Origin: Escherichia coli
Lineage (GTDB): Bacteria > Pseudomonadota > Gammaproteobacteria > Enterobacterales > Enterobacteriaceae
Assembly (NCBI RefSeq): GCF_011045215.1
Contig: NZ_CP049201.1
Direction: 5' to 3' (one strand)
Length of the DNA: 64,000 nt
The notes under the pieces were generated by a model. The model did not search any database. It saw only the letters and a list, made by a program, of their open reading frames with translations, and was not told the DNA's origin. Positions 28,101 through 49,394 of the stretch are shown piece by piece (positions within the stretch are counted from its first letter, which is position 1; every line of letters begins with the position of its first letter). Made by a program: the position numbers and the translations under genes.

Positions 28101-28195
28101 TATGTGATGCCAAACTGTGATCGGAGATGGATGCCAAATCATGATCGATTCGAATGCCAAACTGCGATCGATTCAGATGCCATTTTGCAGTTATC
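28100..28195. repeat. Displaced IS21-family subterminal repeat block (3-4 copies of ATGCCAAA..TGATCGATT)
   Basis: Read directly: GTGATGCCAAACTGTGATCGG, GGATGCCAAATCATGATCGATT, CGAATGCCAAACTGCGATCGATT, CAGATGCCA. Confidence 0.6.
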
Positions 28196-29820: not shown

Positions 29821-31050
29821 TTATGGTGCAGGATAGGGGTTATTTTTAACTAATTGTTCTTTAATGGGATTTGTTGTCATGGAATGACAGGGTGTCAGAA
29901 GATGCAGGTGCAGGATTTGGTGGAAAGGATGTGCAGTGGCATGTAACAGAGACATGCCCCTGCGCCTGAGAAGTGCCACAATATGGCCGAGCAATACAAA
30001 CCACGAATGCAGACGACGCTGGCGGGGTATCTGACGAGCTGTATTGTGCAGTTTGCTCCTGAGTTGAATGACACCCACTGTTTCCTGTTGTCTTTCCAGA
30101 CGAATTTTTTCTTCAAGCTGAAGGATTTTCTCCAGAATCGTTTCCCGGTTTGCAGCCTGTTCTTCAGGCTCGCATGATGGCACTGGCACTGGCACTGGCA
30201 CTGGCACTGGCACTGGCACTGGCACTGGCACAGTCTGCTGTTGCTCTTTTTTCAGTAAAGCCAGGTGCTCTGGTGTAAAATCAATCTGTGTTTGCAGAGA
30301 AGACCAGCCATACTTTTTTCCAAGCTGAGACGCTTTAAAGGCAATGCCCTGGTACTGAAATGAAAAGCCGTTCATTTTTCCCGTTGAGGCGATATTAGGT
30401 TTACAGTTCACGCCTTCCTTTTCCAGCATAGTGATAAAAGTCAGCAAATCAGGGCGGCCGGTTAACGCATTATCAATCAGGCTCTGCAGAGTGGACCTGG
30501 GGCAGGGAGTTGTCGTTCTTTCAGCCATCATCAGCTCGTTGCGGGAAGGCTTTCTTTTCTCCTGACTATGACTACTGATTGCAGATGTGGTTTGAGTGAG
30601 TTTGTGGACTTTCTCCAGCTCGCTGATAATCCGGGTACTGATAAGATTTTCATTTTTCCCAAGGTACAGCTTCCCACCGACCATGTTAATTCTGTTAGCT
30701 ATTATATGGATATGCTGCCCGTCCGAATCATCGTGCATGATATAGCAGCGAAGATGGGTTTCAGTGAATCCCATCCGGGTCATATAATCGTCAGCGAATG
30801 CCGCCCATTGTCTGACTGACAGTGTTTCTCCCTTTGGCAGGCGAAGCGAATTATGCCAGACAGGTTTGGCGACACCGGGGCGCAGTAGTCTTGTGCCTTC
30901 AAATTCACTGATAAGTTCAGCAGCAGTGCTTCCCGTCATGTTGCCACCGATAATATAAGGCGTGATTTTGTGGTGAGATCCTGACTTAAGGCTATAGAGA
31001 ACAACACCTGCGAACTGTTTACCCCGCTTTATTTTCTGCATACCTTTCAT
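29821..31050 (-). CDS. Mobilization relaxase (MobA/MobL-like) with internal (VP)n linker; C-terminal tail of doubtful authenticity
   Basis: Three-histidine relaxase-type motif HDDSDGQHIHIIANR; start overlaps the mobC-like stop (ATGA at 31047-31050); low-complexity tail after the VP repeat. Confidence 0.65.
   Translation of the reverse strand: MKGMQKIKRGKQFAGVVLYSLKSGSHHKITPYIIGGNMTGSTAAELISEFEGTRLLRPGVAKPVWHNSLRLPKGETLSVRQWAAFADDYMTRMGFTETHLRCYIMHDDSDGQHIHIIANRINMVGGKLYLGKNENLISTRIISELEKVHKLTQTTSAISSHSQEKRKPSRNELMMAERTTTPCPRSTLQSLIDNALTGRPDLLTFITMLEKEGVNCKPNIASTGKMNGFSFQYQGIAFKASQLGKKYGWSSLQTQIDFTPEHLALLKKEQQQTVPVPVPVPVPVPVPVPVPSCEPEEQAANRETILEKILQLEEKIRLERQQETVGVIQLRSKLHNTARQIPRQRRLHSWFVLLGHIVALLRRRGMSLLHATAHPFHQILHLHLLTPCHSMTTNPIKEQLVKNNPYPAP
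30178..30231. repeat. Perfect hexanucleotide tandem repeat (TGGCAC)x9 inside the relaxase gene
   Basis: Read directly; encodes a run of 8-9 Val-Pro dipeptides on the minus strand. Confidence 0.95.
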
Positions 31051-31451
31051 TGAGTTGGCTCCAGAAAGGTTGATGGAATAAGGTGATCCCTGAGAGTTTT
31101 GATTTGTCTGCGCAGGGCGAAGAGTTCTGTACGGGTCAGTTCGCTGTCAGGGCTTTTGCTGTCGAGATGATTCAGCAGGCGGTTTAAATGCTGTGAAAGG
31201 TTGCCGAGTTTAATCCATGCTTCACGATTGATTTCAGGTAATACCGGTGGGAGTTTGTTGAGGGATGCCATTCTTAGCCATTCCCCTTTTTTATAAGGGC
31301 CTCTTTTACTATCGAGAATAGATAATTCTTCTTCGTTTAACCGAACGCTGACGCAGTGAGTTCGAACTTCATTAGGTGAATATTTTGCTGTATGGAATTT
31401 ACCTCTTCTTGAGCGTCTTGATAGATCTTCTTTACTTTCATTTTTATGCAT
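31047..31451 (-). CDS. MobC-like relaxosome accessory protein
   Basis: 134-aa basic protein immediately upstream of and overlapping the relaxase gene; typical mobC-mobA arrangement. Confidence 0.5.
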   Translation of the reverse strand: MHKNESKEDLSRRSRRGKFHTAKYSPNEVRTHCVSVRLNEEELSILDSKRGPYKKGEWLRMASLNKLPPVLPEINREAWIKLGNLSQHLNRLLNHLDSKSPDSELTRTELFALRRQIKTLRDHLIPSTFLEPTQ

Positions 31452-31628
31452 ATCTAACCTTTTTTAAAATGTGTTCATGATCTACAGTTAGCGCATTGGT
31501 AAAATAAGTCAAGGCAGTGTCGAAATTTATAAATAAGATAGGTGGAGCAGATTGCTAATTAGGTAATCTGCTCTGGGTAAAAATAGGGTTCATATTAAAT
31601 TCATTATGACAGTGAGGAGGGGCGGAGG

Positions 31629-32573
31629 TTACAATCTACGTTTTACTGGCATTAAAGAGATTGTTTGTTTCATAATTTCGCTAAGTTTCTTTTTCTCATG
31701 TTCTGCTATATATTTACAAATCTCATCATGTCGAATATGCTGTTCCAGTTGTTTTTTATCCATTTTGATGTCATTGCGGATAAACCATTTAATGGTTTCA
31801 ATGTCCCCGCGTAAATCATAACCTCGCAGTACAATATGGCGAAAATGTGTGTTGCTGATATCTGTCTTCTTCTTTAGTTCACTGAAGAAAGAGCTCATTT
31901 CATTTTCATTGGCACTTAGATAAACCTGGCAGTTATCAGAGATAGTAAAGTTAAGGTTTTTCTTCTGAAGCAAATCCATTATCTGCAGACTTTCGCTGTT
32001 GAGGTAGTTGAAAATTACTGGACTGCTATCCTTCATACTAATATGACGAATGAGCATTTTGGCTTTGAAATCGCCTAATGAATAGCAAATTTCAAAAATA
32101 CCGTGACCCTGGTTATCTCTGTGGTTTATATCGCAACCGGCCTGTACCATCAAATCAAAGATAGAGTGATTTTTTACGTAAAAAAGTATTGTTCTTCCGC
32201 ATTTATCCACATTGTTGACATTAATTCCAGCATTGATCAGGGTTTTGCAACAGGATATATTATCAGCTAACGAGCATAAACAGGTTTGGCCGAGACCATT
32301 TTTATGGTGTATATCTACGCCGGAATCAATCAATTTTTTCAGTATGTGAGGATTTCGCTGGTTAAACAAAACATTGTGACCATAGTTGTCAGCATGGTTA
32401 AAATCTATTCCTGCTTTAACCAGAGTGTCAATCATTCTTGGGTTTTTACAGTAAAACAGTATATTTCTTCCAAACGAATCCAGTGTATTAATATCGGAGC
32501 CTGCATTAATGCAAGCCTGAATGTCTTTTGGAGTTTTACAAGAGAGTAATGTATTTATTGCGTTGTTATTCAT
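31629..32573 (-). CDS. Ankyrin-repeat protein (paralog 2)
   Basis: 314-aa ORF with ankyrin-like repeats (GSDINTLDSFGRNILFY..., GIDFNHADNYGHNVLF...) and the shared C-terminal region; 16 bp downstream of ORF 32589-33029. Confidence 0.7.
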   Translation of the reverse strand: MNNNAINTLLSCKTPKDIQACINAGSDINTLDSFGRNILFYCKNPRMIDTLVKAGIDFNHADNYGHNVLFNQRNPHILKKLIDSGVDIHHKNGLGQTCLCSLADNISCCKTLINAGINVNNVDKCGRTILFYVKNHSIFDLMVQAGCDINHRDNQGHGIFEICYSLGDFKAKMLIRHISMKDSSPVIFNYLNSESLQIMDLLQKKNLNFTISDNCQVYLSANENEMSSFFSELKKKTDISNTHFRHIVLRGYDLRGDIETIKWFIRNDIKMDKKQLEQHIRHDEICKYIAEHEKKKLSEIMKQTISLMPVKRRL

Positions 32574-32588
32574 AATTTTTCTCCTCTG

Positions 32589-33029
32589 TTAAGCGACTAA
32601 TCTGATATAGTTGTCATGGTTGGTTTTATATTCCTTTATTTTTTTAATGTCTTCGTAAATTCGAGCGAGTGAAAACCATGAGATCTCTTTCAACATGTTT
32701 TTGTTGCTTACATACAAAATGTTACCACCGCGAAATGAAAAAGCATTATGGAATGTACTTTCATTCGTCGTTTTGAGAAATCGAATGAAATTTTTTATTG
32801 TCTCTTTTTTGTTCATGTTATAAGAGGTGAATGTATAGATAGAGAATACGGTTAAAATATTTCTCTTCGAGACCATATGTCTTGAGAAATAATCGAAATA
32901 AAATCTTTGCTCCTGAGTGTCACTTTTGCAGAAAAAAGAAAATTGTGGATTATATAATCTATAAAGATCTGCGTTCTTTTTTGTTTTGGCGAGATAGTTA
33001 GTCAGGCTTGGATATTTTGTTTTATTCAT
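32589..33029 (-). CDS. Hypothetical protein (146 aa), probably co-transcribed with ankyrin paralog 2
   Basis: ORF ends 16 bp upstream of the ankyrin gene start on the same strand; no recognised domain. Confidence 0.45.
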   Translation of the reverse strand: MNKTKYPSLTNYLAKTKKNADLYRLYNPQFSFFCKSDTQEQRFYFDYFSRHMVSKRNILTVFSIYTFTSYNMNKKETIKNFIRFLKTTNESTFHNAFSFRGGNILYVSNKNMLKEISWFSLARIYEDIKKIKEYKTNHDNYIRLVA

Positions 33030-33389
33030 TTTAGTTCTCCTTTATTTAATTAACAAAGGAAATATATATTATTAAATAAACAAAATGCAAATATATTTTT
33101 ATATTTATTTAATTAAATAGTTATATTTTTATTATATTTCATATAAGGTGTTGTTTTTCATTGTTATTTTATTTTTATCAAAAAGTGCTGTGTTTTATTT
33201 GATTGATTTGGTTTGAGAGTAGTGATTGATATAGTATGAATTGGCGATGAGGGTGTTTTAAAAAATAAATTTATCAAAGTGCAAAGGTGCAATGTGGGGC
33301 TTTGTATTAAATTAATGATGTTAGCGCCCCTTGGCTATCTAACTAAAGGTTAAAGCCAAGGGGAGAGTGTTCAGGCAGATTCAATTCAT

Positions 33390-34371
33390 AATCTTTTTTT
33401 TGTAATTGCTTTACAGGTAACTGGTTGAAGCGTTGTTCGTAAAACCTTTTGCTCTCTCTGTAATTTGTCCTGGAGGATTTCTTCATAAAAGTAGCGTTCT
33501 TTTAGCGATTCTATATCAACTTTTATATCATTACGTATTAACCATTTAATTAGCAGTCTTCCTGCATAGTGCGTCAGTAGATATGTACTGCTTATGTAAA
33601 ACCAAACATGACTAATGTCTGTCAGCTTCTTTAGTTGTAAAATTAATTTTTTAGCGTCGGCATTTGTTGGTGTTATGATACATTTATCACTTATCTCAAA
33701 TTCATTTTTTGTTTTATAAGCAATGACAACAGCTCAATTGATTTAAATGTAATGTTCTTGAGTACAATTTTTGAACTATTTGTAAGGTGAATATTACGGA
33801 TAAAAAAGCGCATGTAGTTATCATTTTTAGATTCCCAGTGCGTATATTTACCAACTATGCTATTATTTTCTGACTGCCAGTGATCGAATGCTGTCTGTCC
33901 ACTTATATTTTTATGATTAATGTCGCAACCAGCCTCAATTAGTGCATCGTACACATATCCTTCAAATGGAATGAAAAGAAAGGAATTGCCATATCTATCT
34001 TTGGTATGGATATCTAGTCCTGCTTTGATAAGATATTTTACTAACCCTGGTGAAACATCAATATGTTGAATCGCAAGGGTGCCTGACTTATTCCGGTGGT
34101 TAACATTAATACCATTGCTGACAAGAAGTTCCACTGTTTCAACATTTTGAGCATAGAATAATGCATTATTACCGTCATTATCCAAGTGGTGAATGTCAAT
34201 GTCAGCGTCAATCATTGCCTGTATAGCTTCAGGTACATTACAGGTAAAAAGAGCAGTTTGACCTTTACTATTGCACATATTTATATCCATGCCAGCCTTA
34301 AGGCAACGAAGGACACCATTTTTAGACTTTACACGGAATAGGTTATTTTTATTATTTTCTCTTGATATCAT
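33390..34371 (-). pseudogene. Ankyrin-repeat paralog 3, frameshifted at a homopolymer tract
   Basis: 226-aa ORF stops at 33691-33693; the paralog-consistent C-terminal region (...KNEFEISDKCIITPTNADAKK...LLIKWLIRNDIKVD...) continues in another frame; shift maps to the T6 tract at 33705-33710; 3' end approximate. Confidence 0.55.
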
Positions 34372-34890
34372 TGTTTATCTCCTTTTTTGTTGTTTTCAAG
34401 ATATTAATGACACCAGATTTTACGGTATTCAAATTTATTTTTGTTTTATTAGGGGGTATCTGATTTGGTTTGCTTAAGGTTATTCTTAACTTAATGGAAC
34501 ATAGGGACTTTAAGGTTATCCTATGTGATGTGGATTAACCATTTTCACAAGAATATTTATCCATATTGGAGCTAATCTGTATAAAGGAGATAATTAGAGG
34601 CTCAGATATTAATACTATAGAGAGTAATGCTATAGGATATGGAAAAGATCATGTAATATAATGGTGGTTATTAATGTTCATCTTAATTTTGGAAATTAAA
34701 TGAGTAGTGTTTTTTATGAGGTTTTTTGCTGTTGATAATTCTTATTAAAATTTGAAGAGCATCCTTTAAGTTATTCGGCTTGAGGATGCTCATTTAAAAT
34801 TTAAGCAGCGTAGTCTTTTTCAACAGCCAGGAAGGGGTGATGCTGCCAACTTACTGATTTAGTGTATGATGGTGTTTTTGAGGTGCTCCA

Positions 34891-35133
34891 GTGGCTTCTG
34901 TTTATATCAGCTGTCCCTCCTGTTCAGCTACTGACGGGATGGTGCGTAACGGTAAAAGTACTGCCGGACATCAGCGCTATCTCTGCTCTCACTGCCGTAA
35001 AACATGGCAACTGCAGTTCACTTACACCGCTTCTCAACCCGGTACGCACCAGAAAATCATTGATGTGGCCATGAATGGCGTTGGCCTCAACACGATTTTA
35101 CGTCACTTAAAAAACTCAGGCCGCAGTCGGTAA
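34891..35133 (+). CDS. insA: IS1 InsA (deletion variant, 80 aa)
   Basis: [80 protein letters not shown]. Confidence 0.85.
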
Positions 35134-35177
35134 CCTCGCGCATATAGCCGGGCAGTGACATCATCGTCTGCGCGGAA

Positions 35178-35555
35178 ATGGACGAACAGTGGGGCTACGT
35201 CGGGGCTAAATCGCGGCAGCGCTGGCTGTTTTACGCGTATGACAGGCTCTGGAAGACGGTTGTTGCGCACGTATTCGGTGAACGCACTATAGCGACGCTG
35301 GAGCGTCTTATGAGCCTGCTGTCACCCTTTGACGTGGTGATATGGATGACGGATGGCTGGCCGCTGTATGAATCCCGCCTGAAGGGAAAGCTGCATGTAA
35401 TCAGCAAGCGATATACGCAGCGAATTGAGCGGCATAACCTGAATCTGAGGCAGCATCTGGCACGGCTGGGACGGAAGTCGCTGTCGTTCTCAAAATCGGT
35501 GGAGCTGCATGACAAAGTAATCGGGCATTATCTGAACATAAAACACTATCAATAA
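35178..35555 (+). CDS. insB: IS1 InsB segment (expressed as InsAB' by -1 frameshift)
   Basis: [22 protein letters not shown]...[15 protein letters not shown] matches the IS1 InsB C-terminal region. Confidence 0.85.
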
Positions 35556-35600
35556 GTTGGGACCATTACCAAATAGTTTATATGCTAAAAATTTAGGGAA

Positions 35601-38600
35601 TCATTTTCCTAATTCTCCAGCTAAAAGTTCAGCCTGCTTCAAAACAGTCTCTGTGGCGAGCAATGACATATCAGGCGGATAACCATATTTTTTGAGCAGA
35701 CGTTTTACCACCACGCGAATTTTTGCTCTTGCTGCTTCTTTCACTGTCCAGTCAAGACTGACATTGTTGCGGATAGCCTCCGTAAGTACGACTGCCAGTT
35801 CTCGTAGTTTTTCCTTTTCCATTAACTCGCGAGCACTGTCGTTATCTGCAACAGCAGAATAGAAGGCATATTCATAAGCGCTGAGGTTTAACTGGCTGGC
35901 AAGGCTGTCAGATTCCTGGATAGTCTTGGCAAGCTTGATTAGCTCATCAATTACCTCCGCTGCTGTCAGTACCTTGTTCTGGTAGCCATTGATTGCAGAG
36001 GTCAGCATATCAATCAGTTTTTTGCCTTGGGTGATACTTTGATTCGAGCGAACTTTAATCTCGTCAGAAAGCAGTTTTTTAAGCGTTTCCAAAGCAATAT
36101 TTCTGTGTTGGTAATCCTTCATTTCCTGAAGGAATTCTTCAGAAAGAACGGAAATATCTGGCTTTTGTATCCCAGCAGCGTCAAAAATATCAACAACTTT
36201 ATCGGTAACCAGAGCCTGATCGATAGTCTGTTTTACCCGAACTTCCAGACTGTCATTGTGTTCTTCTTCTGATCCGTCTGAGTTTTCAGTAAATTTATTC
36301 AGTCTGGCTTTTACTGCCTGGAAGAATGCTACTTCGGGTGCCGCTTCCATTGCTTTATCGTGCGGTGTCGCCAATGCAAATGCCTGCGACAAGGCTGCAA
36401 CCGCAGCCAGGAAACGCATTTTACCTTTACCGTTATCCAGCCCTAAAATATGGTTTTCTGATTCAAGAATAATTGTCAGGCGTTGTGAAGTAGTTGCGGC
36501 AAAGTAAGCTTTGTAATCGTAGCCATGCATCATGCCTTCCAGGATTTCCAGCTTTTCCTGCATGAGCGTTACAGCTTCTTCCTGAACCTCAGCAGGATCT
36601 CCACGTCCACCTGCATCAGAGTAAAAGGAGAGGGCTTCTTTTAAATCAGAGGCAATGCCCAGATAGTCAACAACCAGACCGCCTATCTTATCTTTATACA
36701 CACGGTTCACACGGGCAATTGCCTGCATGAGGTTGTGGCCTTTCATTGGTTTGTCGATATACAGCGTATGCATGCTGGGAGCGTCGAAGCCGGTTAACCA
36801 CATATCACGCACTATCACCAGTTTCAGCTTGTCGTCGTCATCCTTCATACGATTAGCCAGAACCTGACGTTCTTTTTTTGTGGTGTGGTGTTTAGCGATT
36901 TCTGGTCCGTCAGCAGCAGAAGAGGTCATGACGACTTTAATCACGCCATCATTTAGATTATCGCTGTGCCATTCAGGTTTTAACTCTATGATTTCTTTAT
37001 AAAGTTCAGCAGCAATACGACGGGACATGGTGACAATCATGCCCTTGCCATGATCGGCATTAGATTTTAAGCGCTGTTCAAAGTGCTGAACCATATCCGC
37101 CGCAATAGCTTTAATACGTTTTGAACTGCCAATCAAACCTTCGATTCTGGCCCATTTAGACCGTTCTTTCTGGGTAAGCGTCAGCTCGTCTTCGTTAAAC
37201 TCATCGTCGAAGTCTTCAATTAGCTGGCGACCTTCGTCACTGATGGCAATTTTGGCAAGACGGCTTTCATAGAAGATACGCACGGTTGCACCGTCTTCTA
37301 CGGCCTGTGAGATATCGTAGATATCAACGTAGTTACCAAAAACAGCAGGTGTGTTTACGTCCGTTTTTTCTATGGGGGTTCCGGTAAAGCCAAGATAGGT
37401 AGCATTGGGCAAGGCATCACGCATATATTTGGCAAAGCCGTAAACGGTGCGTTTACCTGTTACGTTGCCTTCGCTGTCTTTCACGTCAACTTCTTTGGCG
37501 CTGAAACCGTATTGTGAACGGTGGGCTTCATCAGCGATAACGACAATATTGGTTCTGTCTGACAACAACTCATAGATATTGCTGCCATCATTAGGCTGGA
37601 ATTTTTGAATAGTGGTAAACACCACACCACCAGAGGCTACGCGCAAATATTCTTTGAGTTCTTCCCGGTTGTCGGCCTGTTTTGGTGTCTGACGAAGTAG
37701 CTAGGTCGCGGAAGAGAACGTACCGAATAGCTGATCATCCAAATCGTTACGGTCAGTAATCACAACAACTGTCGGATTATCCAGCGCCAGCACAATTTTC
37801 CCGGTATAAAACACCATCGAAAGCGATTTACCGGAACCCTGAGTATGCCAGACTACGCCCGCTTTGCGATCTCCGGTTTTTTGCGCATTAACAAGATCTT
37901 TACTGTTACGTCCCTGCTGGCGCAGTGCCACTTCGGCAGAGGGGGAGTCCGCATTCACCGCTGAGGCACGAATAGTGGAAAGAACTGCTGCATTGACCGC
38001 GTAGTACTGGTGATAAGCCGCCATTTTTTTAACAGTACGGATACTGATAATCCCTTTGCTGTCTTCATGTTTGCTGGCCTCAAACACGATAAAGTGGCGG
38101 ATCATATCCAGCAGCGTTACAGGATTAAGCAACCCCTGTAATAAAACTTCAAGCTGTGGTTGGGTACTGGTGGCTTGCGTTTTACCGTTAGCAGTTTTCC
38201 ACGTCATATAACGACTGAAATCGGCAGAAACCGTCCCCGCTTTGGCTTCCAGCCCGTCAGATATCACATTAAAAGCATTGTAGTTAAACAGACCGGGGAT
38301 TTGGTTCTGATAGGTTTTAATCTGATTATAGGCACCTGTTACCGTAGCATTTTCGTCAGCGGCATTTTTAAGTTCGATAACGACTAATGGCAGGCCGTTG
38401 ATGAATAAAATAAGATCAGGTCGGCGGGTATGATTGCCTTCTTTGATGGTGAGCTGATTAATGACCAGAAATTCATTATTAGTGGGATCGTTAAAGTCGA
38501 TCAGGCAGGCCAGCTCTCCTTGTGTATTACCATCCTTACTGACTTCGATATTGATCCCTTCGGTCAACAGGCGATGAAAGGCCAGATTGTTTGCCATTAG

Positions 38601-38840
38601 ATCAGGTGTGCTGATCTGCATCACCTGTTTCAGGGCTTCCTCACACTTCTGTTCACTAAGGTGCGGATTCAGGCGTTGTAGAGCAATACGCACCTTATCT
38701 TCAAGGATAACCTGCTGATAGCTACGTAACGGATTGATTCCACTGGGTTCAATGTCCGGGCCGTAAACATACTCATAGCCCAGCCCTTGCAGGTGCTCAA
38801 TTGCCATTACTTCAATATCGGATTCGGTCATCTTTGCCAT
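35601..38840 (-). pseudogene. hsdR: Type I restriction enzyme R subunit HsdR interrupted by an in-frame amber codon
   Basis: ORFs 37701-38840 (N-terminal, helicase motif I GSGKS) and 35601-37646 (C-terminal) are in the same frame, separated by a single TAG at 37701-37703 (...[33 protein letters not shown]...). Confidence 0.8.
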
Positions 38841-38898
38841 GCGTACTGTCCTTATTGCCGCTTAACCAGAGAGCGGGCTGTACACCCGCATAATTATT

Positions 38899-40050
38899 TT
38901 ATGCTACTGATGCGATTGCTTCTTCTGCATACTGAACCCGTACTTCACCGCTCATCAGTTTGGGAAGTAAGGTATCGCGGAGTTTTTCTAAGCTATCAAT
39001 TTGTTTTGAGTTGTTAATAAGTTTACTTTCAAATGAATCTAATAACTCATTAATTATACGTAGGGAAGCTTCTGTTGGCAGATTAACATTGAACTTCTTA
39101 AGATGATCCAAGTTAACTCGTTGTCTGCCACTTGAACCTTCCATACAGCTTTCTGCATATTCTTTGAAGTCCGGGTTTCGGCACATGATATATGAGATAA
39201 AAGGATGGATTTCTTTTTTAGGACGCATAACTATGAATTCGGTAGAACCCCATCCAGTTTCATTGTCGTCTAAAAAATCAATATAGGCCGCTTTCCCATT
39301 TTCTAAACATGGGGTAATTCTGGCTAGCAAGGTATCTCGTTTAGTAAATTTAGTTCCTGAAGAAAATGGACGTCTGTAATATCCATTTGCACGAAAATTA
39401 ACAGTGCTCAGTCCAGCCATGTCCAAATAAGTAGCGTCTTGGCTTTTAATTAAAGTTCGCTTTGGATTAAAGTCAATTATCTGATCTATACTAACTGATA
39501 CACCAGTGCTATCTAAAATAAACCACTGCCTAAACAGGGTTTCAGCCATAGATTCTAGTGTTTTATTCTGGCAATGAAGCAGGTCTATTTTGTCTTTAAG
39601 AGAGGACAAAATAGAGGCGATGGCTTTTTGTTCAGATTCATCAATTGGTAAGTAAAGAGGAATCAAATTTAGCGATGCTTTATTTAATTTTGGTTGAGCA
39701 GCACCTGTTAAATAAGGAGATAGATCAAGTTGTGAAAAATATTGGATTATCAATGCCGTTAAATGGGGCTTTTTAGCTTTAAGGACATGAGCGTGATTAT
39801 TAACCCAAAATTTTCCAGTAGCTTCAAATGCTATAGGTGTTTTTCTGGAATTTAAGTTTTCTCCATCTTCAGAAATAAGGATGTAGCTGCCATCAAAAAT
39901 ATAATTGTCGATATAATCGACAATTCCTGACGCTCCATAATATGGAAAATTTCCTTTCTTATGGGCTCGTTCCATAGCACTCAAAGGAATTCTTTGTGCG
40001 TTGCAAAAATCTGCTAATTCAGTTATACAAAAATTTCTCCACCTACTCAT
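38899..40050 (-). CDS. hsdS: Type I R-M specificity subunit HsdS
   Basis: 383-aa ORF between hsdR and hsdM, start overlapping the hsdM stop; two-TRD architecture with conserved central and C-terminal helical regions. Confidence 0.75.
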
Positions 40051-41594
40051 AAAACCACCTTCGCCAGATTATCAACGATGGCTCTGTTCAGACGCGCCTC
40101 TTCTTCCAGTTGCGCTTCAAACTCAGCTTTAAGAGCCGTAAAGCGTTCTTTAAAGTCGAAATCGTCTTCTTCATCAGCAAGACCAACATAACGGCCAGGT
40201 GTCAGCACATAATCGAGTTTAGCAACTTCAGCAATGTCTACTGACGCACAGAAACCAGCGACGTCTTCGTAGTCGCCACCTTTGTTACGCCAGTTATGGT
40301 AGGTATCGGCTATGGTTTTAATATCGTAGTCAGACAGGACTTTGGTTCGACGATTAATTAAATGGCCTAAATTCCGGGCATCAATAAACAGAATTTCTTT
40401 ACTGCGATCACGATATTGGCTGCTATTTTCACGATCACGACGCATAAACCATAACGCCGCAGGGATCTGGGTGTTCAGGAACAGTTTTGCAGGTAAATTT
40501 ACGATACAGTCAATCACATTGGCATCTTTTACCAGTGCGGCACGGATATCACCTTCACCAGAACTTTTAGATGTTAAAGCCCCTTTTGCCAGTACAACAC
40601 CAGCCTGACCTTTTGGCGACAGGTGATACAGAAAATGCTGCATCCAGGCAAAGTTAGCATTCCCGGTAGGTGGGATACCGTATTGCCAACGGGCATCGCC
40701 ACGAAGCTGCTCACCGGACCAGTCAGACACGTTAAACGGTGGATTGGCAATGATAAAATCAGATTTTAGATCTTTGTGGGCATCGTTAAGGAATGAGCCT
40801 TCACTGTTCCAGCGGACGTGTTCTGAATTGATACCCCGGATAGCCAGGTTCATTTTTGCCAGACGCCAGGTGGTCTGGTTGGATTCCTGACCGTAAATCG
40901 AAATATCGTCAATATTTCCCTGATGCGCTTCAACAAATTTTTCTGACTGAACGAACATACCACCGGAACCGCAGCAAGGGTCAAAGACTCGGCCTTTATA
41001 GGGTTCCAGCATGTTAACCAGCAGGCTTACGATGGATTTTGGCGTATAGAACTGACCGCCCTGTTTGCCTTCTGCCAGTGCAAATTCACCAAGGAAGTAT
41101 TCGAATACGTGGCCTAATACATCAGCAGAACGCGCTTTGGCATCTCCCAGTGCAATGTTGCCAATCAGATCTATCAGTTCACCCAGCACAGTTGCGTCGA
41201 GGTTCTGGCGAGCGTAGACTTTCGGCAGCACACCTTTTAGCTGTGGGTTACCCGCTTCGATAAGCTCCATAGCATCATCAACCAGCTTACCGATTTCGGG
41301 TAGCTTTGCCTTAGATATTAGATAGTTCCAGCGTGCAAGCTCAGGGACAAAGAAAATGTTGTAAGCGGTGTACTCGTCTCTATCTTCCGGGTCAGCGCCT
41401 GCGAACTCGCCTTCACCAGCCTTCAGCAACTCATAATGAGATTCAAAAGAATCAGAAATATACTTAAGGAAAATCAGGCCCAGCACGACATGCTTGTACT
41501 CGGCTGCATCAATGTTCTTACGTAGCTTGTCAGCCGCTTTCCACAGGATGACCTCTAACGGGTCTGTTTTGATTTCTTTAGGTTTTCTGGCCAT
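40047..41594 (-). CDS. hsdM: Type I R-M N6-adenine DNA methyltransferase HsdM
   Basis: 515-aa ORF with AdoMet-binding motif [10 protein letters not shown] and catalytic NPPF. Confidence 0.9.
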
Positions 41595-41754
41595 TAGCGT
41601 AACTTTGTGAAGGTGGAAGATGGCCCTATTTTGCCTTAAAGTTCCGCTTGTTACGAGCTTATACAGCGATTAATTATTATCTGGTTTTAGTGTGTTCGTG
41701 TAGCTCAGCAAGTGCAATGACTCATGGAGTAAATGCTTTGTAGCGGGATTGTAG

Positions 41755-42070
41755 ATGTCAGGTCATTGCCGTCAATGGAGCCAGTGTCATTGGCATAATT
41801 GCTGCACAGCCGATGCCACGCGCACATTCGCTAGTTCACTGTGGTTCATCGTGTGTACTACACCAGTACGCAGTCCGGGAAGTAACGGCATGGCAGAATC
41901 GTTTGTAAAGACGTTCAAGCGGGATTATGTGTACGTAGATGATCTGCTGGATGCAGTCTAAATGATGGAAACAATGGCAGAATAGATAGAGGATTATAAT
42001 AATCTGCATCCACACAAGGGGTTGAACATGAAATCGCCACGCGAATATCGTGATGCCATATTAGCAGTTA
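41755..42070 (+). pseudogene. IS3-family (IS2-group-like) transposase OrfB C-terminal remnant with internal stops
   Basis: ...NGMAESFVKTFKRDYVYV...IEDYNNLHPHKGLNMKSPREYR... resembles the IS2 InsD C-terminus (NGIAESFVKTIKRDYI...HYNEWHPHSALGYRSPREY). Confidence 0.55.
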
Positions 42071-42515
42071 ATTAGCCGTGTCCGTTTTAGCAGGGACAAC
42101 TCCAGTATTCAAAAAAGCTTTCTTAGTGCATATGCATGAGGTGAATAGATGTACAGGCTATGACAAACCATAGTTGTAATTTTTAATGTTTAAAATTCTC
42201 CGTTACAGTAGGACACTCCTTGTACATTAAATTCCATCTAAGGTTGAATTTTTAATTTAATAAGGTCGCAATCTAAAATGATGTGTATGGGGTTATTTGT
42301 AAGATGATTTTTTATGTTTGATAGTGGTGATTAAGGGAGCGGGTAATGTTTGTCTATTCAAAAATATAGAGATTCAAGGTTGGTAGCAGTTTGGCTTCTT
42401 TTCTAACCGAAGGGCAGAAAAGCAAGGGGAACTCGAAGAAGCAAGCGCAGCGGCTTCGCAGAGTTAGCCCTTGCTTCTCTTATAATTGGCATTATTCATT
42501 CAAGAACAATAGGAT

Positions 42516-42535
42516 CTTCGCTTGTACAAGCGAAG
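42516..42535. repeat. 20-bp perfect palindrome CTTCGCTTGTACAAGCGAAG
   Basis: Read directly; lies in a 1.1-kb AT-rich intergenic region upstream of the ParB-like/recombinase module, near a second inverted repeat (42414-42479). Confidence 0.8.
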
Positions 42536-43189
42536 CTATAATAAAAACAATCAATTAATTATTTTAAAAGTATTAAACAAGAACCTATTGACATTCATAA
42601 AATACAAGTTATTTATAATGTATGCCATAAATAAAAAGTTTTATGTCATATGTATCCTGCACTATGTGCAGTTAATGTACCACTTGTCCCATAGATGGGA
42701 ATATTGGAAAGGTTACTTTGTTTTGAAGTAGCCTTTCGTCCTTCAATATTAACGATTACTTATTGCTATTACCAAGTCCAGTCGAATCGAAGAACATCTT
42801 TTATCTGAAACGACTCCTAATACCCGGTTAAAGCCACAATAACTCTCGCATACGTAGACCAAAGAAAAATTATGATATTAAATATGTGATTTTTTTTAGT
42901 GTTAAGTTGAATAATTAAATACTGGAGAGTTTTCTGTGCACTACCAATTGCTGGTTCATCTGTTCTGCCGCTGATGTTTCTGACGAATCTCCCGGTGACA
43001 CAGAACTGTCCCTCTCTACCAGCCTTTATTCGACTCAATGTCCGGCTGCTGATACGCAGTTATCCCTTCGTATCAATGACTGACACTTAAACGTAATGCT
43101 TTGGTTGCTGGCGTATCTGACAGCTTCTTCGGCGTGAAGGTCGTTGTGTAAGTATACTTCTTGGTTTATTTAGGCTATATAAAACATGA

Positions 43190-44086
43190 CTATGACTTGC
43201 TGTTTTCAGTAAGAGTCTTATCATCCAAAGAATTTATTCTAGAAATTCTTTTTAACTCATTAAGATAATCAACCTCGTTTTCTAAGAACCAATGAAGAAC
43301 TTTAGAATTGCCAAGTAATTTATTAATATATGACTGGATTATAACGAATTTCAACATATCTGAACCATACTCGGTTTGAAGCTTTTTCGTTTCTTCCGAA
43401 GTTGTTGCCATTTCTTGTTCCAGACGAAGTATGGTTTTTTTTATATCCTTTTTATAGGGAGTGTTTTTCCCTTTATTTACTATCATCGATGCCGGTGTTG
43501 CATCCAAGATGCTCATTGCAAATTTTTTACTATAATTATCAAAATTAATCATTGTACCGACTGCTTCAATTTGGCGAATTGGCTTCATTTTCCTCAAAAC
43601 GTCAAATGTAGCCTTAGGTATAGGTTTATCAGAAAGTTTCGCAATTACACTTGGATCTATGCCGTTCATCACATTCGCTTTATCTTTTATGGCATCAACA
43701 GATATGCCCAAAGCAGCACTAAGTTTTTCAATTGATACTTTTGCCAGAGACTTAATTATCATTCTATGTTCTTCAACTACATTTATATGATTCACTTGTT
43801 TGTTAGGAGTGAAAGCATCATCTATGCTCGAAAGTATACATGGAGCTTTTTCTATACCTAAGTCTTTTAAAGCCTCAACCCTTAAATGGCCATCAAGTAT
43901 CTTAGTGACATCTTTATCTTTGTCATAGAATACTATTATTGGTTCAATAATACCTAAGCTTTCGATAGAGGTAACTATTTGATGATATTTATGGCTTCGC
44001 TTTACGTTTTCTAATAATTCCTTAGATGGAATTAACTTATTAGTTTCCAGGTAAATAAAATTATCGCCAAAACGTATCTGAATCAT
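43190..44086 (-). CDS. ParB-N-terminal-domain (ParB/Srx-fold) protein, paralog B
   Basis: 298-aa AT-rich ORF; ILDGHLRVEALKDLG resembles the ParB arginine-patch box (GERRxRA); start overlaps upstream stop (ATGA). Confidence 0.65.
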   Translation of the reverse strand: MIQIRFGDNFIYLETNKLIPSKELLENVKRSHKYHQIVTSIESLGIIEPIIVFYDKDKDVTKILDGHLRVEALKDLGIEKAPCILSSIDDAFTPNKQVNHINVVEEHRMIIKSLAKVSIEKLSAALGISVDAIKDKANVMNGIDPSVIAKLSDKPIPKATFDVLRKMKPIRQIEAVGTMINFDNYSKKFAMSILDATPASMIVNKGKNTPYKKDIKKTILRLEQEMATTSEETKKLQTEYGSDMLKFVIIQSYINKLLGNSKVLHWFLENEVDYLNELKRISRINSLDDKTLTENSKS

Positions 44087-44979
44087 TTTAATACCTCTTT
44101 GTTTACTGGGGTTAATATCTGAGATGGTAGTTCTGAAAGATTCTCTTGTTCAAGTATATGTTGAAAGCTTTTATTCATCATTATGATGTTAAAAATCTCA
44201 TTTACTATTAGTAGGTTGGTTTTTATGAATTTTGAGTTGTTATAAACAGATTTATGTTCAGCGATACTATTTTCATAAAGCTCAATCAACTCCTCTGCAG
44301 TCATCCTTTTTGATGGTTTGTGATAATAAAATCCGGCTGCTTTTGCACCTTTATTCCCAACTGTTCTTTGATTTAGAATGTGTTTTATCTTTATAATGTC
44401 CCGACTTTTTATTAATTTTTTATCATATGCTTCGGTAAGAATATCTTGTGCTTCCTCAGTTTCACATCTTGCAAATTGCACTGCGAGATACAGAGGCAAA
44501 TTACCCCGTTCGACTGCTGAGAGAAGTTTATGCTCTCCCTTATCAAGTAGCATATTAATACTGCTCACCCAGTTCGATGAATATCCAGTAATCTCACTTA
44601 TTTCGGAGTCTGAAAGTCCTCTGATTTTCATGTCTTTAATCACCTGTAATAACTCATTAGAACGTGGTCTTCTCCTTGCAATGTTTTCAACTAAACTCAT
44701 AACGTAAGCATCTTCTTCTGATACATCTCTTATAATTGCTGGAATAATAGTTTCACCTAATGCAACGAGAGCCTCTATTCTCCCTTGACCACAAATTAAA
44801 GCATATTTGAAATCGCCTTCATCAATAGCTCTTACGCTTATAGGCTTGCTTAATCCTCTTTTTTTTATGCTTTCCTTTATTTCTTCATGCACTAACTTAT
44901 TTCTTGTTCGTGGGTTAAGAAATTTTATTTTTGCAATCTCAATTTGAATTATTGGGAATTCATTTTTTTCAGGCAGCAT
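44083..44979 (-). CDS. ParB-N-terminal-domain (ParB/Srx-fold) protein, paralog A
   Basis: 298-aa ORF; LICGQGRIEALVALG ParB-box-like motif; start overlaps the recombinase gene end. Confidence 0.65.
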   Translation of the reverse strand: MLPEKNEFPIIQIEIAKIKFLNPRTRNKLVHEEIKESIKKRGLSKPISVRAIDEGDFKYALICGQGRIEALVALGETIIPAIIRDVSEEDAYVMSLVENIARRRPRSNELLQVIKDMKIRGLSDSEISEITGYSSNWVSSINMLLDKGEHKLLSAVERGNLPLYLAVQFARCETEEAQDILTEAYDKKLIKSRDIIKIKHILNQRTVGNKGAKAAGFYYHKPSKRMTAEELIELYENSIAEHKSVYNNSKFIKTNLLIVNEIFNIIMMNKSFQHILEQENLSELPSQILTPVNKEVLK

Positions 44980-46525
44980 ATAGTTCCCTCACTTTCATGC
45001 GAGTAATAATTTGTAGAAGTTTATCAAGATTATCAAATCTATAGAGATCTAATCGAATGTTGTTTGTTTCCGTCATGCACATTTTATTATATTCGTTTTC
45101 AATCTTTGGTATGATATAAAAATCAAGAGGTGAAATATTTTGTGAATTCATTCGTATAACAATTGTTATGTCTGCTTTCTGTGAGTTATCAAACCGGACT
45201 TTCCATCTAAGTTTACCTGATTTCATATGTATGCATTTAGTAACAAGGACGGAAATTAAAAACTCATCATTGATGTAAAGCATTGGGGCATATTTATACT
45301 CGTCTATATGACAGTTACTTTTTAAAATTTCACCCTTAAAATCCTCAATTATCTCTGAGTGAAATGATCTTAGTGCTTCATTTATTTTGAGATAGCTGTA
45401 ATCATGTTCTGGCTTATAACCAATCAAAGTATATGCTCTTAAAAGACCACCAAATCGGGTTCTATAAACAGAAGATGAAGGGCCTGTATCATCTTCATCA
45501 ATGATAAAGCCTGATAGTTTTCCATTAGATTCTAATTTTTGTTTTAGTTTTTCTAATAGATCTTCATTAGTCAAATGAATGGATCGGAGCTGAATTATTT
45601 CTTGAGCTTTATTGTATTTTTTCTTTGAAATAATAGGTTTATATGCCTTGTCACATCTAACCCATTCATGTTTGGGGTTTTTTACAAGCCTACTTTTTAA
45701 TTTAGATGAGGTTTTGTTATATATGTTGTTTCCAATATATTTTTCATTTGTCAAAATTTGATGTATTTTTGCACGAGTCCATAATGTTCCATTTTCTGCA
45801 GGTATGTTCTGTTCATTTAATCTCTCAGCAATAATGAATTCTGGGACGTTATTATCTATAAAGAGATCATATATTCTATTTACAATTTTTATTTCATTTT
45901 TTGGTCCCGGAATTAATATTACCCTATCTGTTTGAATACTCTTTCTTTTGCGGAAACTCAATATTTCTTTAGCTATGCCATTTTCGTCTACTAAAAGACG
46001 TCTCAGCCCATAACCAGCCATACCGCCTTGATGATAACCAAGCTTTATTAAATTTACTTGCCCTATAAATACCTTTTCAGATAAATTCCTGCTGTGATAT
46101 GCAGCACTAGATCTTTTTATATTCAGTATAACAGAGGACTCTAAAGGGAAATCTTTAGTGGGTATAGGTTCGGAACAATATATAAGATCTACACCATTTC
46201 TCTCAAATAGAAAGGAATAATATGCCGCTTCATCACTATTTTGAAAACGACCAAAACGGCTCACATCATAAAATAATACAGCCTGTATATCTATTTTCTT
46301 TTGTTCTACATCGCTAAGTAACTGCTGCAAAGAATGCCTGCCTACGATACTGACTCCGCTCTTACCTGCATCATCGTAGGTATAAGCGATTTCCATATTG
46401 TTCTTTTCAGCATAATCTTTGATATATTCGGACTGATTATGTAAAGAATATTGCTGATGGTCGGTAGACATCCTCAAGTACTGCGCGACCCTAACTCTAT
46501 GATTTTTGTCATTTTCGCTAGCCAT
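44969..46525 (-). CDS. Large serine recombinase (resolvase catalytic domain plus recombinase domain)
   Basis: 518-aa ORF; N-terminal YLRMSTDHQ (catalytic Ser motif) ... DVSRFGR typical of the serine recombinase fold; length indicates the large-serine-recombinase class. Confidence 0.8.
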   Translation of the reverse strand: MASENDKNHRVRVAQYLRMSTDHQQYSLHNQSEYIKDYAEKNNMEIAYTYDDAGKSGVSIVGRHSLQQLLSDVEQKKIDIQAVLFYDVSRFGRFQNSDEAAYYSFLFERNGVDLIYCSEPIPTKDFPLESSVILNIKRSSAAYHSRNLSEKVFIGQVNLIKLGYHQGGMAGYGLRRLLVDENGIAKEILSFRKRKSIQTDRVILIPGPKNEIKIVNRIYDLFIDNNVPEFIIAERLNEQNIPAENGTLWTRAKIHQILTNEKYIGNNIYNKTSSKLKSRLVKNPKHEWVRCDKAYKPIISKKKYNKAQEIIQLRSIHLTNEDLLEKLKQKLESNGKLSGFIIDEDDTGPSSSVYRTRFGGLLRAYTLIGYKPEHDYSYLKINEALRSFHSEIIEDFKGEILKSNCHIDEYKYAPMLYINDEFLISVLVTKCIHMKSGKLRWKVRFDNSQKADITIVIRMNSQNISPLDFYIIPKIENEYNKMCMTETNNIRLDLYRFDNLDKLLQIITRMKVRELYAA

Positions 46526-46807
46526 GCACGAAACCTCATGGGTGATTCAATACAATGTAGAGGATAAAATTGATCAAATTTTAACCGAATTCAACTGTTT
46601 TATCATTGATTAGAGCGAATTTGGTAGATCTTCGAGGTGTATGATAATCGAGAAGAGATGTGAATTATTTAGCTGATATGACCGACAGCTTTCGTTATGT
46701 GGACTCAATGTCCCCATTTGTAAATGGCTATGCTTAGTCCACATAGGTTAATGGTGTGATTATTAATTCTTTAACTAAATCAAGATAGTTAATCCATCAT
46801 GGGAGAG

Positions 46808-48037
46808 TTATGCGGCAATAACTTTGCATTTTTGAGACGAAACATAGTCACTCCACCATTGCATGAGAACCACCCGTTCAGTGAGATACTCTGCACGATT
46901 GTAGGCTGCAATTATTTCATCTTTCTTCGAGTGGGCAAGGGCGGCTTCTAAGACATCAGTCCTAAACTTGCCAGACTCCTCAGCAGCCGTTCTAGCAATG
47001 GATCGCATACCGTGAGCTACAAGCTCACCTCCGAAACCCATACGGATTATGGCCGCATTAGCTGTTTGTTCATGCATGTGATTGAGTGGAGCTTTGATAC
47101 TGGGGAACACCCACTCTCTATGCCCGCTGATGACTTTCATTAAATCCAAAACTCGCAAAGCTTCTTTGCTCAGTGGAACTTTGTGAGGCTTCTTCATTTT
47201 CATAAACTCCGCCGGGATGTTCCACATGCCAGTTTCAATATCAATATCTGACCATCTTGTGCGAACAGCTTCACCTGGGCGAACCCATGTGAGAAGTTGC
47301 CACTCAATCAGTAGCCTTGTTTCCAAACGGATAGAAGCATTGTTTAGAGCAACCAAGAAGCGAGGGAGTTCGGAAGGGGGTAATGCTGGCATATTCTGTT
47401 TTTTTGGCTTGCTGAACCGTTGCCCCAGGTTGTCTGCCGGGTTGAATTCTATGAGTTCTTCTGTTGCTGCATAGCGGAAAATTTCATTCAGGCGGGATAT
47501 GATGCGGCGAAGTGTTTCAAGGACACCTCGTTTTTCTATGGGTTCTAAATGCTGTTTAAGCATTTTAGGGCGAATCTCCTTAATTGGGGTATCACCCAAT
47601 GTGGAAAAGATATTTCTCTCTAGGCTTCGCCAGATGTCGTTAGCATGATCTTGGGAGATGCCTGACGTTTTGACTTTCTCATCAAGCCACTTCTTGGCTA
47701 CTGCTTGAAATGTATGTTCCGTGGCATCTTTCAGTGCATTGGCTTTTTGGTTGTTATGAACTTGGGGGTCTATACCATTTGTAAGCAACGACAAGTATTC
47801 ATCACGTAAAGCTCGTGCCTTCGCAAGTGTAAGGTGAGGATAGGTTCCTAAGCTCACCTTAGTTCGCTTTTTGGTCACAGGCACTGCATATCTGAAATAC
47901 CAATTTTTCTTCCCTCCCTTCGCCAGGGGAGCGATTCGCAACAGCAAACCATCGCCGTCAAAAAGGTTAACCTCTTTTTCGGCAGGTTTGGTGCTTTTGA
48001 TTTCAGTGTCAGTGAGCTTCTTAGCGATTTTGGCCAT
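46808..48037 (-). CDS. P4-type tyrosine integrase
   Basis: ORF 46808-48118; likely start MAKIAKKLTDTEIK (48037, ~409 aa); C-terminal catalytic-domain residues (...HGMRSIARTAAEE...); located 166 bp from the ssrA 3' end, same orientation. Confidence 0.85.
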   Translation of the reverse strand: MAKIAKKLTDTEIKSTKPAEKEVNLFDGDGLLLRIAPLAKGGKKNWYFRYAVPVTKKRTKVSLGTYPHLTLAKARALRDEYLSLLTNGIDPQVHNNQKANALKDATEHTFQAVAKKWLDEKVKTSGISQDHANDIWRSLERNIFSTLGDTPIKEIRPKMLKQHLEPIEKRGVLETLRRIISRLNEIFRYAATEELIEFNPADNLGQRFSKPKKQNMPALPPSELPRFLVALNNASIRLETRLLIEWQLLTWVRPGEAVRTRWSDIDIETGMWNIPAEFMKMKKPHKVPLSKEALRVLDLMKVISGHREWVFPSIKAPLNHMHEQTANAAIIRMGFGGELVAHGMRSIARTAAEESGKFRTDVLEAALAHSKKDEIIAAYNRAEYLTERVVLMQWWSDYVSSQKCKVIAA

Positions 48038-48203
48038 GTTTGGGACCCTCGATTTTAGGACCCATCTTCGTGGGTCCCATTCAGGGTGCCATAACTCGTA
48101 GTTCTCAGCAATTCTCACTAGACTACAATAGACGTAAAAAAGCCCGCAGAGCTTGTGCTGTGCGGGCTTAGTAGACTTTACTGAACTTCAGTACATCAAT
48201 ATT

Positions 48204-48566
48204 TGGTGGAGCTGGCGGGAGTTGAACCCGCGTCCGAAATTCCTACATCCTCGGTACTACATGCTTAGTCAGTCTTTACATTCGCTTGCCAGCTGCGGAC
48301 GGACACGCCACTAACAAACTAGCCTGATTAAGTTTTAACGCTTCAACCCCAGGCAGGGCTTCCACGCGATCTCTTTTGGGTTTGACCTCTCTTGATCCCC
48401 GTCCTAAGAGCGGAGGCTAGGGAGAGAGGGCTCTAAGCAGGTTATTAAGCTGCTAAAGCGTAGTTTTCGTCGTTTGCGACTATTTTTTGCGGCTTTTTAC
48501 GAGGCCAACCGCCCCTCGGCATGCACCTTGGGTTTCGCAAATCCCGTCGAATCCAGAATCAGCCCC
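48204..48566 (-). ncRNA. ssrA: tmRNA (SsrA)
   Basis: Reverse complement reads GGGGCTGATTCTGGATTCGACGGGATTTGCGAAACCCAAGGTGCATGCCGAGGGGCGGTTGGCCTCGTAAAAAGCCGCAAAAAATAGTCGCAAACGACGAAAACTACGCTTTAGCAGCTTAA...GCTCCACCA, i.e. E. coli tmRNA including the ANDENYALAA tag-encoding segment; 363 nt. Confidence 0.97.
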
Positions 48567-48780
48567 AATGTGTAAAGGTAAGTATACCAGATTTATGAGC
48601 GCCATGACCAGCCTCAATGGCGTTATCGTTAAAGATTTAGCACCCATGTAGCCTGATTTTTATTCGATTAAGCAATGGGATGGCAACATTTGTGTCGGAT
48701 GTGATAGCCAATAAGATGTTCATTCGCGCCGCCGGAGAGGGAGGCGCGGTGAGGAACTGGTCAATAATTGGAGTGCAGGT

Positions 48781-49263
48781 TTAACGGTGGGCGTTTTTCA
48801 TGATACGTGCTTTATCCACCTGCCATTCGCGTTCTTTGATATCTGAACGTTTATCGTGCTGTTTCTTACCTTTGGCGACGCCGATTTTCACTTTGCACCA
48901 GGCATTTTTCCAGTACAGGGAGAGCGCCACTACGGTATAGCCTTCTCGATTGACGCGACCGTACAATGAGTCCAGTTCGCGCTGGTTGAGAAGTAACTTG
49001 CGGGTACGGGTAGGATCGCACACCACATGCGTGGAGGCCACGGCCATTGGCGTGATGTTAGCGCCAAACAGAAATGCCTCTCCGTCACGCAGAAGGACGT
49101 AGCTGTCGCTGATATTGGCTTTTCCTGCGCGCAGGGATTTAACTTCCCAGCCTTGCAGGGCAAGTCCCGCTTCGAACTCTTCTTCGATAAAGTATTCGTG
49201 ACGGGCGCGCTTGTTAAGCGCGATGGTCGCTGAACCAGGTTTATGTGCTTTTTTCTTCGTCAT
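48781..49263 (-). CDS. smpB: SsrA-binding protein SmpB
   Basis: 160-aa [36 protein letters not shown]... recognised as SmpB; directly upstream of ssrA. Confidence 0.95.
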
Positions 49264-49394
49264 AAGCGTCGTGAATCATCGGTAATCTGAAATCGAAAAC
49301 ACCCCATATCAATCCTGCGGGGGACAAGGCTCTATCTTAGCATGAACCCGATGTTACCCAGCGCCGGGATAGCGTTTTTTTTACAGCAGGATAA

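Follow-up and report, generated by a model that had tools for sequence, protein, structure and literature searches.

The window, a 64,000-nucleotide stretch of Escherichia coli DNA, carries a type I restriction-modification locus whose hsdR is, as judged from its sequence, a pseudogene. A genuine and recent amber mutation at Gln380 appears to end hsdR within the motor, and very probably restriction has been lost while M2S methylation is kept (an r-m+ state). Comparison with relatives places the mutation as a change from CAG to TAG that is very recent and private to one E. coli lineage; on the coding strand it is a C-to-T transition. The operon sits on a mobilisable genomic island integrated beside the tmRNA gene ssrA. 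Coordinates of the features discussed here are given in Table 1.

Table 1. Features of the type I locus and its immediate surroundings, in window coordinates.
Feature	Coordinates	Strand	Description
hsdM	40047..41594	-	515 aa, intact, type I methyltransferase subunit
hsdS	38899..40050	-	383 aa, intact, specificity subunit
hsdR pseudogene	35601..38840	-	1079 codons + TGA, one internal amber
Amber TAG (hsdR codon 380)	37701..37703	-	CTA on the plus strand
Predicted 379-aa hsdR product	37704..38840	-	ATG start
Untranslated hsdR remainder	35601..37700	-	3' of the amber
Degenerate IS1	34836..35570	+	735 bp, canonical length 768
Candidate sigma-70 promoter 5' of hsdM	41748..41775	-	TTGACG, 16-base spacer, TACAAT; weakly indicated

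The open reading frames and their translations place the R, M and S genes next to one another on the minus strand in the order hsdM-hsdS-hsdR. The PADLOC profiles MTase_I, Specificity_I and REase_I all find matches at the locus, and PGAP gives the genes the same names in relatives. The start codon of hsdS overlaps the stop codon of hsdM (ATGA at 40047-40050), and hsdR closes the cluster, with its start 58 bases downstream of hsdS. The candidate promoter upstream of hsdM scores 10/12 in a consensus scan. Scanning the sequence for promoters and terminators returned weak consensus matches only, fewer than in shuffled sequence, and the transcription units of the locus were therefore deduced from gene spacing.

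The first-pass annotation described hsdR as a frame of about 1,080 codons interrupted by a single TAG, and translation yields just this: 1080 codons with one internal stop and a terminal TGA. In the open reading frame listing the gene appears as two entries: 37701-38840, which starts at ATG and encodes 379 aa, and 35601-37646, with a nominal TTG start and 681 aa. Once the amber is repaired, HsdR matches the NCBIfam model TIGR00348 (hsdR) at 593 bits, against a cut-off of 284.55, in one stretch spanning residues 316-742, and the PADLOC profile REase_I PDLC03040 at 1226 bits in a stretch covering 318-1076. Its Pfam domains are HSDR_N (4-209), SWI2_SNF2 (278-549), T1R_D3-like (652-726) and T1RH-like_C (744-1074). 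Nuclease, SF2 motor and C-terminal assembly domain are thus all present in the DNA, in a frame that no longer reads through them as one. The amber lies inside the SWI2_SNF2 domain, between GSGKS at residue 335 (motif I) and DEAH at residue 437 (motif II). The 379-aa product retains the PD-(D/E)xK nuclease (PD at 141, ELK at 156), the Walker A sequence GSGKS and motif Ia, and lacks DEAH and all residues after it. The remainder of hsdR 3' of the amber encodes DEAH, TGTP (486), QAIARVNR (706) and the C-terminal helical domain.

The Logan gene caller reports two frames here, of 379 and 673 aa, the longer begun at GTG 37622, and they might be read as separate functional genes, one nuclease-like and one helicase-like. 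The first-pass annotation had allowed for this should homology fail to continue across the stop. Homology is continuous across it: one Pfam ATPase domain (278-549) and single HMM stretches span the amber, and the two fragments align one after the other to a single PADLOC REase_I profile (3-286 and 372-1024 of 1029). The 673-aa frame has neither a Walker A motif nor a clear ribosome-binding site, and no clear Shine-Dalgarno sequence precedes any of the possible in-frame restarts 3' of the amber (TTG 37646, GTG 37625 and GTG 37622). Every relative examined has a single hsdR gene of 1079 aa, and the split amounts to one SNP in one lineage. We rejected the two-gene reading on the ATPase domain and HMM stretches that cross the amber, and it retains virtually no probability. 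As far as sequence can tell, the two frames are parts of one hsdR.

Comparison with relatives dates the amber. Over the 5,994 bases from 35601 to 41594, the sole difference between the window and the E. coli genome TUM9812 is at plus-strand position 37703, which is A in the window and G in TUM9812. Three complete E. coli genomes match 5,993 of the 5,994 bases and annotate an intact 1079-aa HsdR (WP_033548215.1), and codon 380 was read as CAG (Gln) in two relatives. In an exact-sequence look-up, 377 contigs carry the intact HsdR allele and a single one (Logan SRR11014969_111) the truncated product. Among the 315 complete E. coli genomes that carry the stretch, exact matching of a 61-mer centred on codon 380 found no copy with TAG.

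A change of a single base, missing from all 315 other genomes with the stretch and set in an allele otherwise identical to intact ones, might also be a sequencing or assembly error in a strain that really has an intact hsdR, as the first-pass annotation had conceded. Against this, the separately built Logan assembly of SRR11014969 matches the window without a difference (100% identity) over 18,639 bases, TAG included, with the 379-aa product also called on its contig, although the assembly may derive from the same isolate or the same reads and so backs the base call without representing an independent lineage. The presence of TAG in this assembly of public reads makes a consensus error unlikely, and short-read assemblies seldom contain substitution errors in their consensus. 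Across 34836-42467 the window and TUM9812 differ by three substitutions and no indels, which indicates window sequence of high quality; over these 7.6 kb there is no indel noise, and two substitutions accompany the amber. We regard an error at this base as very unlikely and treat the amber as genuine.

The remaining two genes were described as intact, and we agree: neither has an internal stop, and the product of each is the same as a full-length protein annotated in relatives. The hsdM product is annotated as WP_032343002.1 in TUM9812 and the hsdS product as WP_032343003.1 in relatives, in both cases with identical locus DNA. The exact hsdM sequence occurs on 455 contigs and the exact hsdS sequence on 448. 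In translation, HsdM has the SAM-binding motif DPCCGSGG and the catalytic motif NPPF expected of a gamma-class N6-adenine methyltransferase, and the Logan gene call assigns it the Pfam domains HsdM_N and N6_Mtase. It matches PADLOC MTase_I PDLC03019 at 628.7 bits and NCBIfam TIGR00497 (hsdM) at 179 bits, the latter below the cut-off of 242.75. HsdS, labelled Methylase_S by Pfam in the Logan gene call, is full-length with a two-TRD layout; it matches PADLOC Specificity_I PDLC03154 at 319 bits over residues 1-383, and its halves are matched by separate Specificity_I stretches (for example 2-177 and 186-382). The hsdS of one relative is interrupted by an IS903B insertion.

A premature hsdR stop beside intact hsdM and hsdS is the genotype of an r-m+ hsdR null, and its predicted consequences follow the domain layout. 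Translation would end in the SWI2/SNF2 motor, within its first RecA-like lobe, and the product would have neither DEAH nor motifs III-VI, and no C-terminal domain. In EcoR124I it is the C-terminal domain, absent from the 379-aa product, that docks HsdR onto the methyltransferase. The truncated protein should fail at ATP hydrolysis, DNA translocation and joining M2S, and with these activities gone restriction by the system should be lost. Since hsdR is last in the cluster, hsdM and hsdS should remain expressed, and since both are identical to alleles of many strains, M2S should still assemble and go on methylating its bipartite target. We infer this combination of lost restriction and retained methylation from established type I enzymology, and methyltransferase activity is assumed from identity with widespread alleles.

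Restriction could nonetheless be partly kept behind a real stop, either through amber readthrough (for instance with a glnV/supE-type suppressor) or because a gene elsewhere in the genome supplies an intact HsdR of this family that joins M2S. Because the codon was CAG before the mutation, a suppressor that inserts Gln at amber codons would give back the wild-type protein exactly, and the base after the amber is C, a context (TAG-C) generally held to be a weaker terminator in E. coli. On the other hand, natural isolates rarely carry amber suppressors and basal amber readthrough is well below 1%. The window contains no suppressor tRNA; a tRNA-Met(CAT) gene and the tmRNA gene are all that it has of this kind. 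As to a second HsdR, complementation between subunits is what defines a type I family (PMC3874165). A few E. coli genomes have two places matching the locus, which is the highest number seen, but the median genome has one. Residual restriction by either route seems improbable to us, and loss of restriction with retained methylation stays the preferred reading.

The IS1 element lies downstream of hsdR, separated from its stop codon by 30 bases, with CAGCCAGGAAGG as its left flank and AAATAGTTTATA as its right, and shows no target-site duplication. The first-pass annotation had pointed to this missing duplication directly downstream of hsdR and to IS-mediated rearrangement at the locus, and both hold. 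The remnant has a 33-bp internal deletion, and where relatives carry this element, PGAP marks it as a pseudogene of IS1 that contains an internal stop. When it is compared with two intact IS1 copies of EC2001, the informative sites from 4 to 424 follow copy a and those from 508 to 761 follow copy b; its left flank is that of copy a and its right flank that of copy b. By these sites and flanks the element is a dead chimera of two IS1 copies, which accounts for the missing target-site duplication. As a cause or companion of the hsdR knockout it was rejected: this dead IS1, junctions included, recurs in relatives that have an intact hsdR, and it is thus unrelated to the amber.

In its wider meaning, the hsdR allele amounts to an ordinary pseudogene in a system that is already catalogued, and loss of restriction by point mutation is well known. 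The strain probably methylates with the type I specificity of the island without restricting, and uptake of foreign DNA may be somewhat easier for it; its own DNA would be protected against sister strains with the intact system. There is a slim chance that the amber is instead a selected or conditional state, in which restriction is given up and the mark kept, or in which restriction is tuned low by readthrough or suppression that restores Gln. Under such selection, losing restriction while keeping methylation would ease the uptake of plasmids or phages, and with the Kiwa genes of E. coli E24377A absent as well, both defence functions at this spot in the island would be gone. Taken as an ordinary pseudogene, the allele has small practical consequence and brings no new mechanism and no new question. 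The locus offers a natural example of defence-island decay, in which an hsdR SNP, IS1 recombination removing adjacent DNA and an IS903B insertion in a relative's hsdS are all to be seen.

Type I families are formally a matter of complementation between subunits (PMC3874165), and by sequence we rejected the three that were tried. For family IA the match to the EcoKI M subunit reaches only E = 7e-18, and for family IB the EcoAI R equivalog model scores 28 bits against a cut-off of 550. For family IC, the matches are E = 4.8e-40 to the EcoR124 M subunit and about 106 bits to EcoR124I R. HsdM matches PDB entry 3khk more strongly, at E = 1.6e-142 against the 4.8e-40 for EcoR124 M. EcoR124I (type IC) has the closest HsdR of solved structure, a distant one whose best stretch covers only residues 660-745. 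The layout is shared, with an N-terminal PD-(D/E)xK nuclease, two RecA-like motor lobes and a C-terminal helical domain, the last labelled HindI-like by Pfam in the window HsdR. The gene order of EcoR124I is also hsdM-hsdS-hsdR.

The closest known systems are those of TUM9812, CEA601S and OZ546938 (HsdR WP_033548215.1, HsdS WP_032343003.1, HsdM WP_032343002.1), which share 5,993 of the 5,994 bases with the window and resemble it in gene order, in the dead IS1 downstream and in the position of the island beside ssrA. They differ at codon 380, where they have CAG and a full 1079-aa HsdR whereas the window has TAG. The island of E24377A has ParB, recombinase and ankyrin neighbours as in the window, and its HsdR (WP_001096909.1) is also 1079 aa long, with 12 residues different. 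Between hsdR and the ankyrin gene E24377A carries kwaA-kwaB (Kiwa), an interval occupied in the window by the remnant of IS1. BLAST leaves the stretch of the window hsdS from 39631 to 40033 unaligned to E24377A, which means that this part of the gene exists in different versions in the two strains. A premature hsdR stop with intact hsdM and hsdS is likewise found in Staphylococcus aureus RN4220, in another species and another type I family; that allele came from chemical mutagenesis, whereas the allele of the window was found in a sequenced isolate. RN4220 and the hsdR cloning strains of E. coli K-12 are examples of classical r-m+ hsdR mutants.

Translation of the minus-strand hsdR frame (window 35601-38840) gives 1080 codons that end in TGA and contain exactly one internal stop, the amber at codon 380, as the first-pass annotation had described. 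The frame begins 58 bases beyond the end of hsdS on the same strand and is divided by an ORF finder into the two fragments listed in the table. These fragments match consecutive stretches of one and the same PADLOC profile (3-286 and 372-1024 of 1029). When codon 380 is replaced by Gln, the repaired 1079-residue protein scores 593 bits against the NCBIfam hsdR model TIGR00348 (cut-off 284.55), in one stretch spanning residues 316-742, and 1226 bits against the PADLOC REase_I profile PDLC03040, over residues 318-1076. Two separate genes are ruled out by this continuous homology across the stop and by the single 1079-residue hsdR seen in all relatives examined.

Features of the hsd locus and its surroundings (window coordinates, or residues of the repaired HsdR)
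Feature	Position	Strand	Details
IS21 family transposase and IstB helper	24152-26591	-	within 24052-28190
IS4 family transposase	26682-28097	+	within 24052-28190
IS1, degenerate	34836-35570		735 bp; ends 30 bases before hsdR stop codon
hsdR ORF fragment 2	35601-37646	-	681 aa; nominal TTG start; ORF finder
In-frame restart codons after the stop	TTG 37646; GTG 37625, 37622	-	
Amber codon TAG	37701-37703	-	CTA on plus strand; hsdR codon 380
hsdR ORF fragment 1	37701-38840	-	379 aa; ATG start; ORF finder
hsdS	38899-40050	-	383 aa; no internal stop
hsdM	40047-41594	-	515 aa; no internal stop
tmRNA (ssrA)	48204-48566		
HSDR_N	residues 4-209		Pfam
SWI2_SNF2	residues 278-549		Pfam
T1R_D3-like	residues 652-726		Pfam
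T1RH-like_C	residues 744-1074		Pfam; labelled HindI-like

The stop falls 3' of Walker A (GSGKS, 335) and motif Ia (TDRNDL, 362), and precedes DEAH (437), TGTP (486), QAIARVNR (706) and the entire C-terminal domain. The truncated product retains the PD...ELK nuclease motif (141, 156), with a motor reduced to part of one lobe. No convincing ribosome-binding site was found at any of the three downstream restart codons, and any product initiated there would be without both Walker A and the nuclease. Since no gene of the cluster follows hsdR, its nonsense codon cannot be polar on hsdM or hsdS. Both of these genes are intact, each is identical to alleles on approximately 450 contigs, the hsdM stop codon is overlapped by the hsdS ATG, and HsdM keeps its DPCCGSGG and NPPF motifs. 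The predicted state is r-m+ (restriction lost, modification kept), in line with the earlier proposal; this is a classical state. A supE-type suppressor tRNA would restore native HsdR, the original codon 380 being Gln; within the 64,000 bases of the window the only tRNA-type genes are a tRNA-Met(CAT) and the tmRNA. Another HsdR of this family, encoded elsewhere, could also complement the defect, and a few genomes do have two places matching the locus, but the median is one match per genome.

The 5,994-bp locus is matched in 346 of 5,426 complete E. coli genomes, chromosomally every time, with TUM9812, CEA601S and OZ546938 matching at the single-mismatch level. In a direct comparison, the sole locus difference from TUM9812 is at plus-strand position 37703 (A in the window, G in TUM9812), which on the coding strand changes CAG (Gln) to TAG. 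Codon 380 is also CAG in E24377A. A search with the 61-mer centred on the amber codon found 315 complete E. coli genomes, none with an exact match. Within a collection of 15 billion proteins, the intact HsdR allele occurs on 377 contigs and the 379-residue product on one, from the Logan assembly of public run SRR11014969. That contig is 100% identical to window 30202-48840 across 18,639 bases, TAG included. The window sequence is not noisy, because it differs from TUM9812 across 34836-42467 by three substitutions and no indels. A sequencing error is thus unlikely, the same TAG being present in SRR11014969. We therefore regard the amber as a genuine transition that is both private and very recent, with the caveat that the SRR11014969 reads may derive from the window's own isolate.

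The IS1 beside hsdR is shorter than intact copies (768 bp) because of a 33-bp internal deletion, and in relatives PGAP classes this element as a pseudogene containing an internal stop. Its flanks, CAGCCAGGAAGG and AAATAGTTTATA, differ and contain no target-site duplication, as had been noted. EC2001 has two intact IS1 copies, a and b, in the corresponding part of the island. In an alignment with these, informative sites 4-424 of the window IS1 follow copy a, bar three window-private bases, and sites 508-761 follow copy b at all but one position; the left flank is that of copy a and the right flank that of copy b. The element is therefore what remained after two IS1 copies recombined and the DNA between them was lost, which accounts for the missing duplication. 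In E24377A the same two junctions (L004, its locus, 3409-4969) are separated by 1,561 bp that include the Kiwa defence genes kwaA and kwaB, a second defence system that the window does not have at this spot. The window's chimeric IS1 is also found, at exactly its junctions here, in TUM9812 and 19AR1724, both of which have an intact hsdR. The IS1 event therefore predates the amber and has no connection with it, so the suggested IS-mediated rearrangement was right yet has no bearing on the hsdR knockout. At the TUM9812 locus (L001 5969-7955), the left end of this IS1 abuts a truncated ypjA rather than the ankyrin gene, and the island seems to have lost its left half (relaxase, ankyrin genes), probably through the IS1. 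MIN11 has an intact IS1A adjoining hsdR, and an IS903B between hsdM and a shortened, 349-residue hsdS (L006 4799-6983) marks a further disruption of this locus that arose independently.

The island adjoins ssrA and contains an integrase, a serine recombinase, two ParB-like genes, hsdMSR, ankyrin-repeat genes and a relaxase. Defence cargo at the same island spot varies among relatives: E24377A has Kiwa there, and EC2001 carries HerA together with a DUF4297 protein. Approximately 4 kb (24052-28190) is absent from the island's closest relatives. Upstream of hsdM, at approximately 41806-42075 (L001 14206-14475), PGAP annotates in relatives, between hsdM and the ParB genes, a pseudogene remnant with an integrase core (IS3-like), near which TUM9812 also has two full IS3-family insertions. 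The chromosome right of the island (49000-64000; recN, ffh, aroF) shows as much as 99.4% identity with E. coli genomes, which places the organism in E. coli or very close to it. The left flank (1-24052; gabD, ypjA, an alpha-amylase-like gene, a SIR2 gene) reaches at most 97.4% identity to any complete E. coli genome and is unusually divergent or recombinant. ARAGORN calls tRNA-Met (anticodon CAT) at 7588-7663; the TUM9812 counterpart is annotated tRNA-Ile, which would be consistent with an isoleucine tRNA whose CAT anticodon is lysidine-modified.

Overall, a single SNP has turned hsdR into an ordinary pseudogene within a catalogued type I system; the first-pass observation is confirmed and its interpretation supported, with the r-m+ phenotype as a prediction from sequence. 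One part of hsdS (39631-40033) gives no BLAST alignment with the E24377A or EC2001 alleles, and the remaining locus is 91-97% identical. This suggests a swapped N-terminal target recognition domain and hence a different specificity from theirs. Type I families are defined via complementation, antibody cross-reaction and sequence (PMC3874165). Placement in family IA, IB or IC on sequence alone was rejected given weak matches to EcoKI, EcoAI and EcoR124I: HsdM matches EcoKI M at E = 7e-18 and EcoR124 M at 4.8e-40, compared with 1.6e-142 for PDB 3khk, and HsdR scores 28 bits against the EcoAI R equivalog (cut-off 550) and approximately 106 bits against EcoR124I R.
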